64,000 nt of DNA, taken from the NCBI RefSeq assembly GCF_045037415.1, contig NZ_CP173440.1; one strand, given 5' to 3'. The position numbers were made by a program. Positions 36,001 to 45,000 of this stretch are shown in pieces. How positions within the stretch are numbered: position 1 is the first letter of the stretch; the number at the start of each line of letters is the position of its first letter. This stretch comes from Escherichia coli. Lineage in GTDB: Bacteria; Pseudomonadota; Gammaproteobacteria; Enterobacterales; Enterobacteriaceae.

Positions 36001-39000
36001 ACAGCACCGCTCCAAAAAATAATCTAGTCATTAACCAGCTCCTCAAAAGTAACTTTTACAGGTTACACGACAACAAAAAATTTTTTTTCCTATACCGGGG
36101 GGAAATGCCTCCTGGTCGGAAAAATATTTTTTTTTGTTTGATACAGTATTTAAGGAGGTAGGACATGATTAAACCCATTGCAGTTGCTCTGATATTGTTA
36201 ACTCCATCGGCCTATGCTGATGTTGATTTACCTGCAGAATTAAAGGACAAAATTGAAGCCGTTGGTATCAACCCCGTCTCTGCAGAGAAATCTCCGGTAA
36301 GTGGTATTTACTCAGTCTTTTCAAAAGAAGGGACGAGTTACGTCACGTCTGACGGTGAATACATCTTCACCGGAAATTTATTCAAAGTGAAAGGGACAGA
36401 AGTGGAAAACACCACGGACGAGTTTATCAGTAAAGGGATGCGATCCTATATTGAGAAGCTCGATACTATCACCTACAAAGCACCAGATGAGAAATATGTC
36501 ATCGGTGTTTTTACTGATATCACCTGTGGCTTTTGCCAGAAACTACATAGCGACCTGCAATCCTATCTGGATAAAGGCATCACTATTAAATTCATCGCAT
36601 ACCCACGTGCCGGGATGAACTCCATGATAGCCCGAAACATGGCATCTGTCTGGTGTGCAGATGACAAACCTGCAGCTTTAACCAGAGCAATGAAAGGGGA
36701 TGGTTTGCCTGAAAAGCAACCGACAAAGACCTGCATGGACTCCATTCAGAGCCAATTTAATGCAGGGAACATGTTCAAACTCTCAGGCACGCCTAGCGGT
36801 TTAAGCCTGAAAGGTGAGCCGATGGTATTTGCGGGGTTACGTGACCCTGACCAGATGCTGAACAGCCTGAAAACGGCCAATCAGAAAAAATAACTCTCCG
36901 GGAGCAACAATGAAGAAATTAATTGCAGTGGCAGCGGTAGTGGTTGTTTCATTTGCCGCCCAATCCAGCGTTTGCGGGCCAGTTGCGTGCAAAGTTACTT
37001 TCGTCGATGTCGACGGCTCGCAAAAGCCGATCATGCTTCTCGATGACAAAGTTTCAACGCGGAAGAGCTCAATGAACCGTGTATTTGATGATGTGTACTC
37101 GCACGGCCGTAAGGTCCAGACTGACCTGAAATCAACCACTCCAGCTGCCGGGCATCCTGATAAATCATCACCCGTGCAAATGAGCAGGGAATTAAGTCCT
37201 GTGGTCATCTACAGCGCATAAAACGGAGTCTCTCATGGGATTAATCAGAACAGTGGTATACGTGGGTATCATTGGAGGCATCTTTGCCTATACACAAACA
37301 AAAGATAGCCTTGAAAATATTTCGGTTCCGGATGCGGAGTTTCCATCGTCAATCTCCAGGAATAACTTTATACAATCGACATGGGTGAACGAGCATTACA
37401 CTTCACTGAAGAATGGCCCGATTGCTGACGGTATATCCAGTATTCTGGATGATGCTCAGGATATCAGGGGGTCTGTCAATAATGTTGTCATGACGGCCGG
37501 TAATGTCGATATCCAGAAGGCTATTCAGGATGCAGTGGATGAACTAGACAGCAATAGCCGTAAATCCAGTAAGTAAAATGGCTCTCAGAACCATCAGATA
37601 CGCCTGTTTAAAATAAAATAACTCAGAGATAAATCATGGAAAATAAACAAAGCACTAAAAAACAAACTCTGATTCACATCGCCTTGGTAGTAGGTGGTTT
37701 TGTTGCTGGTTCGGTAATTTGGGGGAATGGCAGTAATATTATGAACTCAAATGACTCGGCTAATGAGTCTGTCAAAAAACAGCAAATCGAACTGGCAAAT
37801 AGATTCAATGCATTAGCTCAAACAGCGAACCAGGTAAATAAGCCAGCCGGTTTAGTCCTGACTGAGCAGGACAAGGAACTTATTGGAAAAACTGCGGCAC
37901 AGTATTTGATCGAACATCCAGAGAACCTGGTGGAAGCTGGTAAGCGCCTTGAAGCCAACCGAGATGGTGAAAAAACCTCAGACGTTGTGAATACAAAAGA
38001 CGTATTGCTTGAAACAAAATTCACGCCAAACTACGGCCCAGATAACGCAGATGTAGCTGTTATTGAATTTTTCGATTACATGTGTCATTTCTGTCAGCAG
38101 TCCAGTCCCGTGCTTGAAAAGGCGATTGCAGAAAATAAAAATGTTCGGACTTTCTTTAAAGACTTCACCATTTTTGCTGACCGCACACCTATCTCCGGGA
38201 TGGGGGCAAAAATTGGTCTCTACATCTTTAATAAGTACGGGCAGGAAAAATACTACGAGTTCCATAATAAGCTCATGAGTGAAGCGGGTAGGGCAATGAA
38301 GGACAGGAAGGACTATACACCTTCTAATCTGGCGGCCCTGGTCAATGGTTTAGGATATAAAGAAATACTGGATCAGCAAGGTAACTTCTTGCTTACTGTC
38401 GAAATGCGCGATCAGCTTCAGAATGTTCTTGATGCAAATATGATGCTGGCGGATAAACTCAATTATAGCGGCACGCCAGTGTTTATTGTTATGAACATGA
38501 AGAACCCGCAAAACAAAACCACAACCATTATGCCCGGTGCGCCTGATTTTTATCGCTTGCAACAGGCAATTGATAAGGCAAAAGGGAACTAAACATAGCC
38601 CTCCCTTACATAGAAATATAAGCGGAGTGTTTAATTCATTGGCAAAATTCTAGGAGTATGTATGTCGGAGGCTTTCTTGACAGTTTTCGTTGGTGGCGTC
38701 GTTTTTGCTGACGTTGTTAGTGTTTAGCGTCATACGAGTACGTAAATGGAAATGCGTCAAAGAAACACTAGCTATAGTATCTTTTGTATACTTACTTAAC
38801 TTTATAAAAGGTTACCTGAAAATGAACACCAATGTACATCATGTCCAAGAAAATTTTTATATATCATTGCAGGATTGTATAAATAAAGAAGAGAAAACAA
38901 AAAAAACATGCATTGAGTACTGGCGACGTGAAGCTGAGAGGGCGAAGGAAGAAAGCGCAAGACGTAGAGCACTGTCTATAAAGATAATTACCGAAAAAAG

Positions 39001-42000: not shown

Positions 42001-45000
42001 GGGTATACTGGATCATCTTCAGGCACCCAATAACCAGACCCGCACTCCCATTCTTCTCCAATGAATACGAACATTTGCCTGGCAAGATATCTCCTGAGTT
42101 CCTGAGAGATTACGCTCTCAATTTTTAACAGGTAACTCTTGTTCTTACAATGGGCTTTTAAGTGAGAAAGAAGTGTACTGAAGCAGCCTTGATTAGTGAT
42201 AAATACAGAAACTGATGAAACAACCAGAACAGGTTTACCCAGCAAAGATGCATGTTTGCTACGTGCACGTATATACATGTTTTCGAACAAGGCCAAGCCA
42301 TCAACATGTCTGGATTTTACTGGTATAATACTTTTATTACTTTCATCCATTAGCCTTTCAAATGTATTGATTATATTTGTAATATCAGCCTCTAATATTT
42401 TTTGATTAATTATCATTGTACTCTGCAACCCCGGTGTTTGTAACATTCTTAACATCACTGATTAAACTAATATCTACAGAATGTGCCAGTGTTGTTAGCT
42501 CGGTAAAGTTAATTTTTTCGTAATAACCATCACTGATTAAGTTTAATAAATTAAAGTCCAGGGCAGGTGGTGGGCAAATGCTTCCAGAAGTGTAAAGATA
42601 CTCAAGCCCACGCGCATCAAATATGCCGTGAGGGGCACCCTCTGATAGTTTTCCACCTGAATATAACTCAACCCATATCCTGAGTCGGTAATCCAGAGTG
42701 AATTCACCTATCTCAATCCAGAAATGTGGATATAACTCAAAATACGTTTTGGGGTTTTTAACTACCCCGCACATTCGTTGATGAGAAATGCCTGCATGAT
42801 TTAGAGCACTGCTTATCATTAATGTATGACCATCGCACTCAACGGGTGCATTCTCAATAGCCTGTAAGAGATTGTTTAACTTCACAAGACAATCGGGCAT
42901 AAGGATATTGGCCATATAAATACCTATTCCGGAATTTCTGAGAGGAATTCATTAAAGAGATTATCATCGTACAGTGGGTATAATTGCTTCATCATACCAA
43001 AACCGGACATAGCTGCACTTCGCAAGTCGGGATAAAAAGTAGGCTTAGTGATAAGATCGCATTCATTCTTCAGCACACCTTCGAAGCAGCCGTAATCTTC
43101 CCCAAACTCCTGAACTATCATCCAACGGCCATCCTTGCATTCAACTACCATAATAGCAGACTTGGGGTAGTCGCCAGCTGGGGTCAACCAATCAAAATGG
43201 TAGTGGGTGATAGTTTGATAACTCTTATGGACATTCATAGCATTAACCCTAATGCAAGACTTACAACGTGAGAGGTTAGTGTCTGATAAAGCACTGTATA
43301 TATATGGGTCTTCCCTTGTTGTGGTGGCTGAAGGCATGATAATGGCGTATTAAATCGCCAGAGGTCACCACCATGGACGAAAAGTCCCTCTATGCACATA
43401 TCCTCAACTTGTCAGCTCCGTGGCAGGTAAAGTCTCTTTCTCTCGATGAAAATGCCGCTTCTGTTACCGTTACTGTCGGAATCGCTGAAAATACTCAGTT
43501 AACCTGTCCAGCCTGCGGGAAATCCTGCCCCGTTCACGATCACCGGCATCGTAAATGGCGCCACCTCGATACCTGCCAGTTCGCCACGATAGTTGAAGCC
43601 AGTGTGCCCCGTGTTATGTGTCCGAAGCATGGATGCCAGACTTTGCCTGTTCCGTGGGCGGGGCCCGGCAGCCGGTATACGCTGCTGTTCGAATCATTCG
43701 TGCTTTCATGGCTGAAAATCAGCACTGTTGATGCGGTCAGGAAACAACTCAAACTGAGCTGGAATGCCGTTGACGGCATTATGACCCGCGCGGTTAAACG
43801 AGGTCTTGCACGCATAAAAAAGCCGTTAGCAGCCCGGCATATGAATGTGGACGAGGTCGCTTTTAAAAAAGGACATCGTTATATAACGGTGATCTCCGAT
43901 CGTGACGGGCGGGCGCTGGCTTTAACGGATGATCGAGGTAAGGAAAGTCTTGCCGGTTACCTCAGAACCCTGACTGACGGACAGCTGCAGGCCATTAAAA
44001 CGCTCTCAATGGACATGAATGCGGGCTATATAAGAGCCGCGCGCATCCACTTACCGTGTGCAGTTGATAAAATCGCCTTTGACCGCTTCCACGTAGCGAA
44101 ACAGCTGGGTGAGGTGGTGGATAAAACCCGCCAGAATGAACATCCCCGTCTTCCGGTTGAAAGCCGCCGTCAGGCCAAAGGTACCCGCTTCCTGTGGCAG
44201 TACAGCGACAAATGGATGACTGAGTCCCGGCAGAAAAAGCTGATGTGGCTGCGGGAACAGATGCAGCAGACAAGCCAGTGCTGGACACTGAAAGAGCTGG
44301 CCAAAAATATCTGGGATCGCCCCTGGAGCACAGAACGCAGGAATGACTGGTTGCAGTGGATATCGCTGGCGTCTCAATGTGATGTGCCGATGATGAAAAA
44401 CGCAGCGAAAACCATCAAAAAACGGTTATATGGAATACTGAATGCGATGCATCATCGTGTCTCGAATGGTAATGCAGAGGCGCTGAACAGCAAGATCAGA
44501 CTGCTGAGAATAAAAGCCAGAGGATACAGGAACCGGGAGCGCTTTAAGCTGGGAGTGATGTTCCACTATGGAAAACTGAATATGGCGTTCTGAGTCTTCC
44601 CACCATGATCGGGGAAGACCCATATATATACAGTCTGGATTTAACATAACGCACATTAAGCGCACTAATGCTGTAATGGCTCAATAGTAATGTCCGCCTG
44701 TGGCTCAATTCAGATGTCCGCGCTATGGTAAGCTTCACTGGTCCGTTTAAACTACCGGGAGGCATATCATGAGCGCAGAAAGCTCAGGAGTGTTTACTTT
44801 GAAAGAGATCAACCGGATCAAGATTATACAGGACGTCATTGAACGTCGCATCACAACGCGCCGTGCGGCCGAGCACCTCGGTATCAGCGACAGGCAATGC
44901 CGCAGACTTCTTGCCCGTTACCGTGAAGGGGGACCGCTTGGTATGGCCAGCAGACGATGTGGCATGCGTGGTAACCGCCAGTTGCCACCCGGGCTCGCAG

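Follow-up and report, generated by a model that had tools for sequence, protein, structure and literature searches.

A block of seven small genes at 38.6-43.3 kb of a 64,000-nucleotide stretch of Escherichia coli DNA (contig NZ_CP173440.1 of assembly GCF_045037415.1; hereafter the window) is the subject of this report. Three of its coding sequences (CDS), P1-P3, lie on the plus strand and four on the minus strand, in the order P7-P6-P5-P4; this layout had been proposed in an earlier reading of the DNA (the original prediction), and it agrees with both the sequence and the RefSeq annotation of an identical plasmid. The explanation that we favour, with confidence somewhat above even, is that the block belongs to the conserved accessory backbone of a Klebsiella IncFIB/IncHI1B plasmid of the MOBH/MPF_F type and that its minus-strand cluster is a mosaic of independently mobile, independently acting genes. 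What is new here is a widespread, plasmid-specific short variant of DpdC, encoded by P4 and mostly annotated as "hypothetical"; the individual folds in the cluster were already known.

Across its 4.7 kb, the region is 100% identical in dozens of large Klebsiella pneumoniae plasmids, such as pKpvST147B_virulence (IncFIB/IncHI1B, MOBH, MPF_F), and it is also found on E. coli transconjugant plasmids. By Megablast, 2096 of 72,556 plasmid records contained parts of the region, and 369 contained at least 80% of the query. According to RefSeq, the block lies directly 3' of a run of transfer-region genes that includes traF/H/G, a DEAD/DEAH helicase, a lytic transglycosylase, and DsbC-like and DsbA-like genes. 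The block had originally been called cargo, a label that this recurrence and this position make doubtful.

The minus-strand genes differ from one another in distribution. Matches were obtained by tblastn for P4 in 3114 of the same 72,556 records (about 4%), for P6 in 2238, for P5 in 1698 and for P7 in 1302; P1, from the plus-strand half of the block, occurred in just 441 (429 of them conjugative), a narrower spread than that of P4-P7. Host and backbone spectra also differ by gene, with P4 occurring on pOXA-48-type IncL, IncHI2 and IncHI1 plasmids, and P6 reaching IncC plasmids, Vibrio, Aeromonas and Pseudomonas. Within the Klebsiella lineage, each of P4-P7 reaches at least 60% identity in about 800-1,280 records, a band that for P7 includes 68%-identical copies of the IncHI2 type. 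The order P7-P6-P5-P4 is confined to this one IncFIB/IncHI1B lineage, and the other loci examined carry at most three of the four families. Lack of co-conservation elsewhere, which the original prediction had itself named as evidence against its proposal, is largely what was found.

Outside the Klebsiella lineage, P4 mostly occurs alone. Its relative on pOXA-48 (IncL) stands behind a RelB-like gene of 395 amino acids (aa) and an XRE gene, the one on an Enterobacter plasmid stands behind a 406-aa gene, and those of IncHI2 and IncHI1 are found among other small genes next to hns; these neighbours are unrelated to each other and to P5-P7. In IncHI2, P5-like, P7-like and P4-like genes share a backbone region (with DUF1173, Dcm, thermonuclease and H-NS) without being adjacent. 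K. grimontii carries P7-P6-P4 and lacks P5. The Citrobacter plasmid pRHBSTW-00821_2 (locus L021) has only a P5-like gene and then a P6-like gene, in reversed order and with neither P4 nor P7. Relatives of P6 without P5 also occur in IncC plasmids (near repA) and at locus L020, and relatives of P5 without P6 occur in IncHI2.

Divergence at synonymous sites (dS) is just as uneven. Against the pLVPK-type allele, dS is 0.021 for P4, 0.068 for P5, 0.326 for P6 and 0.468 for P7, a spread of more than 20-fold, and against K. grimontii the gradient is reversed, with 0.577 for P4, 0.383 for P6 and 0.087 for P7. Recombination breakpoints run through the cluster. The ratio of nonsynonymous to synonymous divergence (dN/dS) is 0.18-0.58 for all four cluster genes, and this range, taken with the uneven dS, identifies them as real genes under selection that were joined by recombination. 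Deletion alleles also occur in nature, one fusing the N-terminus of P7 to the C-terminus of P6 and another joining P7 to P4 out of frame; some K. pneumoniae plasmids carry a P4 truncated after residue 64.

These results bear directly on the proposal that an uncharacterised, compact cluster of this kind would be a defence or toxin/immunity system. In its full form, the four genes would make up one anti-phage or toxin/immunity system in which P4 senses or modifies DNA and P5 and P6 serve as effectors. Part of the proposal stands: the cluster is compact, AT-rich and accessory, with genes that overlap or nearly abut, and P4 is homologous to the defence protein DpdC, its core also matching the PADLOC candidate PDC-M57A (5.5e-6). 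Moreover, the GNAT and papain-like folds predicted for P5 and P6 are common among effectors, the fold matches of P5 include AtaT/TacT toxins, and two different plasmids have P5 and P6 side by side. What did not emerge is a single co-conserved system. P4 is found by itself on thousands of plasmids, K. grimontii has no P5, the genes lie apart from one another in IncHI2, the members differ more than 20-fold in dS, and natural deletions remove internal genes. No complete PADLOC system was detected, P1-P3 and P5-P7 had no significant PADLOC match (that of P5 to Vsr, at E 0.046, was non-significant), and the P4 homologue of pOXA-48 and its neighbours are non-essential (PMC12365149). A single four-gene system is, in our judgement, very unlikely.

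Judged by its sequence, P4 is an orphan, C-terminally shortened paralogue of DpdC, since it matches the core and motifs of that protein and is without its C-terminus and its partners. It fits the PADLOC DpdC profile PDLC02818 at 1.4e-42 over profile positions 1-234 of 319, and Pfam DUF6884 (PF21818) weakly, at 8e-5. Two motifs, CxxxK (C10..K14) and (L/I)SAxxG (I82-S-A-G-L-G87), are invariant across 29 family members; Pfam curators describe DUF6884 as YaaA-like and place CxxxK and LSAxxG in a putative base-flipping pocket (PMC11701544). The nearest long relative that could be placed in context is the 314-aa DpdC of Tolumonas, which is encoded in a cluster of DpdE, QueC, an unassigned open reading frame (ORF), DpdC, DpdA and DpdB; P4 is 32% identical to its residues 5-233, with the motifs kept. 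The Tolumonas protein matches end to end, and P4 gave no match to the C-terminal model PDLC02819, being without the last 85-95 or so residues of DpdC. No DpdA, DpdB, DpdE or QueC was found in the window by tblastn with the Tolumonas locus as positive control, and none was found beside the plasmid homologues of P4 examined (pOXA-48, IncHI2, IncHI1 and Enterobacter loci). A search of PDB sequences with the P4 profile returned nothing significant, and no NCBIfam hidden Markov model matched P4, so the RefSeq name "tgtA5 cluster protein 2" was not reproduced. RefSeq is itself inconsistent on this point, as near-identical P4 proteins are named either "hypothetical protein" (218 aa) or "tgtA5 cluster protein 2", and some are annotated at a length of only 104 aa (locus L001, 9340-9654). 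A short, partner-less DpdC variant on plasmids is not described in the literature searched.

Could P4 nevertheless be a working DpdC? It would then hydrolyse 7-cyano-7-deazaguanine (dPreQ0) in DNA to the amide dADG, working in trans on DNA previously modified by a host or phage DpdA, and so tune the 7-deazaguanine marks of the plasmid or of an invader. The strong PADLOC match and the motifs shared with the verified Tolumonas DpdC would suit such a role, and earlier work has shown that DpdC converts preQ0-DNA to ADG-DNA independently of DpdA and DpdB in vitro (PMC10164549). Weighing against it are the missing Dpd and QueC partners, the missing C-terminus of the cluster-encoded enzyme, and the breadth of DUF6884, which extends beyond DpdC to proteins such as YfjM, linked to abasic and ribonucleotide lesions (PMC11701544). 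We regard this activity as unlikely.

The relative on the pOXA-48-type plasmid NZ_CP076010.1 (17145-17828) corresponds to orf7, whose DUF6884/DpdC-like product shares 43.5% identity with P4. The gene is translationally coupled to the XRE-type orf8 and lies downstream of orf9, whose 395-aa product has a RelB-like N-terminus. Transposon sequencing of pOXA-48 listed orf7 without a domain and as non-essential, its effect on conjugation being non-significant (transconjugant/input log2 fold change 1.03, adjusted p 0.25), and orf8 is also non-essential (PMC12365149). The neighbour of orf7 was also considered as a candidate for the stability-essential XRE gene orf20/DNDJGHEP_0014, which would imply a toxic, derepressed DUF6884 protein; this was ruled out by gene order, which makes the helix-turn-helix gene orf8 and places orf20 elsewhere. 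No conserved partner of the DUF6884 gene was found across backbones, blastp showing no relation among its neighbours unless the plasmids themselves were closely related.

P5 is, on the strength of its predicted structure, a minimal GNAT-fold protein. The AlphaFold model is confident (pLDDT 88, pTM 0.84) and has the GNAT alpha/beta fold. The motif A loop (T-N-Q-G-C-F-S) is degenerate with respect to Q/R-x-x-G-x-G/A, with G77 and F79 alone invariant and relatives having P-G-(K/T)-G-(F/I)-F. No Pfam acetyltransferase matched P5, and a PDB search with the P5 profile gave nothing significant. Family searches found no antitoxin-type partner (RHH/DUF1778) beside it, and the neighbours P6 and P4 belong to other folds and families. 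An assignment of P5 as a Vsr-like endonuclease was also considered; it had weak matches only (E 0.046-0.45) and was superseded by the confident GNAT-fold model.

For P6, the model indicates an enzyme of the transglutaminase/papain-like type in which a Cys-His-Asp triad is conserved. In the predicted fold, the Cys lies at the N-terminus of a helix, and adjacent strands carry the His and Asp; the family has invariant H64, W66 and D75 and a nearly invariant E26-C27-D28-G29. The family is large and unannotated (311 clusters at 50% identity), several of its AlphaFold database members are labelled transglutaminase-like, and its distant members sit in arrays of small unannotated genes. In Pfam, Transglut_core3 reached just E 0.39, and with ten family members and a profile as queries no NCBIfam, PHROG or PDB sequence match was obtained.

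The overlap of 11 nucleotides (nt) between P6 and P5 suggests translational coupling, and the two could conceivably form a two-gene module, either enzyme and regulator or toxin and antidote, to which P7 and P4 are unrelated neighbours. Their adjacency in the Citrobacter plasmid pRHBSTW-00821_2, where P4 and P7 do not occur, would agree with this. Their order is reversed between the two loci, however, each gene is found without the other in the plasmids named above, and the P6 family is far broader than that of P5. We consider such a module highly improbable.

The first gene of the cluster, P7, had been thought to start at 43337 and to encode 137 aa. This longer frame is an ORF that reads through into an insertion sequence (IS); every homologue begins MNVH, and together with the RefSeq CDS length this places the conserved start at the ATG at 43238. 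Conservation among the homologues is high over the first 60 residues. Searches of Pfam, NCBIfam, PADLOC and PHROG gave no family match for P7, nor did a search of the PDB that included a P7 profile.

Upstream of this start lies an ISL3-family element whose transposase (43373-44593) is annotated as ISL3-like, of the ISCfr12 family. Comparison of its repeats and alignments to IS-free loci show that its inverted repeats start at 43306. The original prediction had put the left end at 43294, inside the 5' end of the first gene; the additional 12 bp of apparent repeat arise because the insertion target, ACTGTATATATATACAGT, is itself palindromic. This palindrome is intact in the IS-free plasmid p1-pV-hybrid, with which the window is identical over 43239-43305. 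Beyond the element, about 53 bp again match the upstream sequence of p1-pV-hybrid, after which the two diverge and ISKpn21 takes over. The coding sequence of P7 is uninterrupted, and the ISL3 element sits 67 bp upstream of its ATG, in the presumptive promoter region. An ISKpn21/ISNCY-family transposase adjoins P5-, P6- or P7-like genes in four plasmids (44769-46172 of the window, 1108-2511 of L020, 1-191 of L021 and 18044-19447 of L023), which suggests that the element either prefers this pool of AT-rich genes as a target or is mobilised together with it.

The ISL3 element and ISKpn21, some 50 bp further out, separate the cluster from its native upstream region in this window, and its expression here is therefore uncertain. 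Neither the window nor the IS-free plasmid yielded a convincing cluster promoter in consensus scans. The cluster could accordingly be regarded as hitch-hiking or decaying DNA, functionless here and silenced by the double IS insertion and possibly, being AT-rich, by H-NS. Replacement of the native upstream region, the failure of the promoter scan to find a promoter-like site between the IS and P7, the deletion and truncation alleles seen in nature, and the dispensability of the pOXA-48 homologue (PMC12365149) are all in keeping with such decay. On the other side, the four ORFs are intact, dN/dS across divergent alleles points to purifying selection, and the configuration bearing ISL3 is 100% conserved in many plasmids. 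Furthermore, IS elements often provide outward promoters. A silenced, functionless cluster is, all told, quite unlikely.

If the cluster is indeed a mosaic of genes that act independently, its parts might work as follows. P7-P6-P5-P4 are probably co-transcribed, because they are so tightly packed. Each protein most likely acts alone: P4, which retains the predicted DNA-binding, base-flipping catalytic core, would modify DNA, whereas P6, through protease, deamidase or acyl-transferase chemistry, and P5, as a minimal GNAT-fold acyl-transferase, would modify host proteins. The neighbourhoods of their relatives contain umuDC, a SOS-response-associated (SRAP) peptidase, a thermonuclease, a PLD nuclease, a Dcm methyltransferase, DUF1173 and H-NS. 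Because of this company of umuDC, SRAP peptidase, nucleases, methyltransferase and H-NS, we infer that the genes may aid the plasmid, by DNA care or by counter-defence, in becoming established or persisting in new hosts. The natural deletion alleles and the non-essential orf7 of pOXA-48 suggest that they would be dispensable in laboratory hosts.

Several points weigh against this account. The role in counter-defence or establishment would be assigned through guilt by association, and co-occurrence was judged from about 25 loci and aggregate counts. Tight packing and the overlap of P6 with P5 would suit a functional unit too. The second, independent arrangement in which P5 and P6 occur together (L021) may reflect a partnership between them. 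Finally, judging from the degenerate motif A, of which the central Gly is the only invariant residue, P5 may not bind acyl-CoA.

The features of the block are listed in the table below. The minus-strand cluster had been described as tight, and its spacing bears this out, with a gap of 8 nt between P7 and P6, the 11-nt overlap of P6 and P5 and a gap of 29 nt between P5 and P4.

Table. Genes of the 38.6-43.3 kb block and the upstream elements of its minus-strand cluster (positions in the window).
Feature	Position	Strand	Description
P1	38822..39778	+	318 aa, basic, Cys-rich; RefSeq CDS in identical plasmids
P2	39896..40411	+	about 171 aa, hydrophobic N-terminus; RefSeq CDS
P3	40414..41016	+	membrane-anchored HAD_SAK_2 (polynucleotide-phosphatase-like HAD); Pfam PF18143
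P4	41290..41946	-	218 aa, orphan short DpdC-like / DUF6884; PADLOC PDLC02818
P5	41976..42416	-	146 aa, minimal GNAT fold (predicted)
P6	42406..42915	-	169 aa, transglutaminase/papain-like Cys-His-Asp enzyme (predicted)
P7	42924..43238	-	104 aa, acidic (pI 4.7), first cluster gene; RefSeq CDS of 315 nt
Native upstream (promoter) remnant of cluster	43239..43305	-	ends in left half of palindromic IS target
ISL3-family element (ISCfr12-like), 1316 bp	43306..44621	+	8-bp ATATATAT duplication at 43298-43305 and 44622-44629
Right half of native upstream region, displaced	44622..44674	.	followed by ISKpn21 (transposase 44769-46172)

Of the plus-strand genes, P3 could be assigned. It matches Pfam PF18143 (HAD_SAK_2) at 5.1e-23 through residues 64-190 and the full length of the model, as well as phrog_1818 at 3e-15, and its sequence has a DFDGVL motif (DxD) and a hydrophobic N-terminal segment, in agreement with its earlier listing as a candidate membrane-anchored HAD-like hydrolase. 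P1 had no match in Pfam, NCBIfam, PADLOC, PHROG or the PDB, and P2 had no family match in Pfam/NCBIfam, PADLOC or PHROG; in K. grimontii a homologue of P2, 65% identical, adjoins a homologue of P3. The statement that none of the seven proteins has an assignable motif consequently survives for P1, P2 and P7, and is superseded for P3, P4, P5 and P6.

The guanine plus cytosine (GC) fraction of the block is 0.388, as against 0.467 for the window, with individual genes ranging from 0.35 to 0.44. GC falls after the DsbA gene, as had been noted, but some 1-kb bins elsewhere are no less AT-rich (0.387 at 30-31 kb and 0.400 at 19-20 kb). The claim that a dispersed palindrome is absent from 37 kb onward was borne out, since AAAGTWACTTT has 16 copies between 6429 and 37001 and none beyond, against a chance expectation of 0.03. 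The copies are all inside the transfer-gene part of the window, several of them intergenic, and the palindrome probably serves as operator for a regulator of the transfer regulon.

That part of the window also encodes a MobH relaxase (15129-18062) and a TraD coupling protein (13013-15139). Next to mobI (18864-19328) is a repeat-rich intergenic region (19330-19920) with two AAAGTWACTTT copies (19440 and 19542) and three 41-nt direct repeats (19582-19723), and this region is the probable origin of transfer (oriT) of the MOBH plasmid. The block is about 19-24 kb from it, at roughly ORFs 18-25, with transfer genes in between. Dispersed direct repeats connect 8726-9124 with 29361-29760 (about 400 nt, 84-95% identity) and 29038-29291 with 31458-31709 (about 250 nt, 82-94%); all lie in the 8.7-31.7 kb interval and may be duplicated regulatory segments. 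Upstream of the block, at 31808-35149, the DEAD/DEAH helicase of 1113 aa has a C-terminus weakly similar to helicases of the anti-phage systems PLuB, Hhe and ProA (E 1e-8 to 1e-12), a similarity far below the curated cut-offs. On the other side of the block, at about 49000-61000 (30466-42262 of locus L003), genes for hemB, dihydroorotase, M14 peptidase, ThrRS, carbonate dehydratase, FolE2, DksA, a GTP-binding protein, a repressor and CysRS are clustered. We interpret this hemB-to-CysRS cluster, folE2 included, as an island of zinc-sparing (Zur-type) paralogues and not as a preQ0 pathway.

Tight packing in AT-rich plasmid DNA is insufficient for calling several genes a "system", and in this case it conceals a recombination mosaic. 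About 4% of sequenced plasmids carry a homologue of a DNA hyper-modification enzyme that is conserved, under purifying selection and nearly always annotated as "hypothetical". Its carriers are clinically important and include the Klebsiella IncFIB/IncHI1B virulence-resistance hybrids, pOXA-48, IncHI2 and IncHI1. Should the P4 family act on DNA bases, conjugative plasmids would be linked to 7-deazaguanine or lesion-based immunity, and a domain of unknown function would gain a concrete biochemical assay. A further idea, speculative and unlikely as we see it, is that the short DpdC-like family is a plasmid enzyme that rewrites or erases base marks or lesions (7-deazaguanine, abasic sites, ribonucleotides) on incoming DNA and so evades modification-based immunity; here, together with GNAT and papain-like enzymes that disable host defence, it would form a new counter-defence island outside the classical leading region.

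Among known systems, P4 comes closest to DpdC of the Dpd 7-deazaguanine restriction-modification system (dpdCAB), a protein of the DUF6884/YaaA-like "cantaloupe" fold, with which it shares, by sequence, the N-terminal core of about 215 residues, both motifs and further invariant residues. Unlike DpdC, P4 is short, plasmid-borne and without dpdA, dpdB or restriction genes nearby. Stand-alone DUF6884 proteins, such as B. subtilis YfjM, resemble P4 in being single-domain, in having conserved putative active-site motifs and in their predicted DNA binding and base flipping (PMC11701544); P4 differs in fitting the DpdC models far better and in belonging to a distinct clade on Enterobacterales conjugative plasmids. 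The minimal GNATs AcrVA5 (an anti-CRISPR protein) and AtaT/TacT (toxins that acetylate tRNA) have no detectable sequence similarity to P5, which is set apart from them by its degenerate motif A and by its lack of an RHH/DUF1778 antitoxin partner. P6 is like the LapG/BTLCP proteases, the SseI deamidase, arylamine N-acetyltransferases and protein glutaminase in its predicted fold and in the placement of Cys, His and Asp. It departs from them in being a small single domain (a core of about 130 residues), in its extra conserved E26, D28, W66, R77 and P95-H96-G97, and in having no significant match to a sequence family.

The block as a whole may be compared with the anti-defence islands of the plasmid leading region, which lie on the T-strand, on the leading side of oriT and within about 30 ORFs of it (Samuel et al. 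2024, PMC11541004). It differs from these islands in its distance from the probable oriT and in containing no recognised Ard, Klc, Acr, PsiB or SSB gene. Like them (PMC11541004), it is made up of small, AT-rich and mostly unannotated genes on a conjugative plasmid, shuffled between backbones and found near nucleases, a methyltransferase, umuDC and H-NS.

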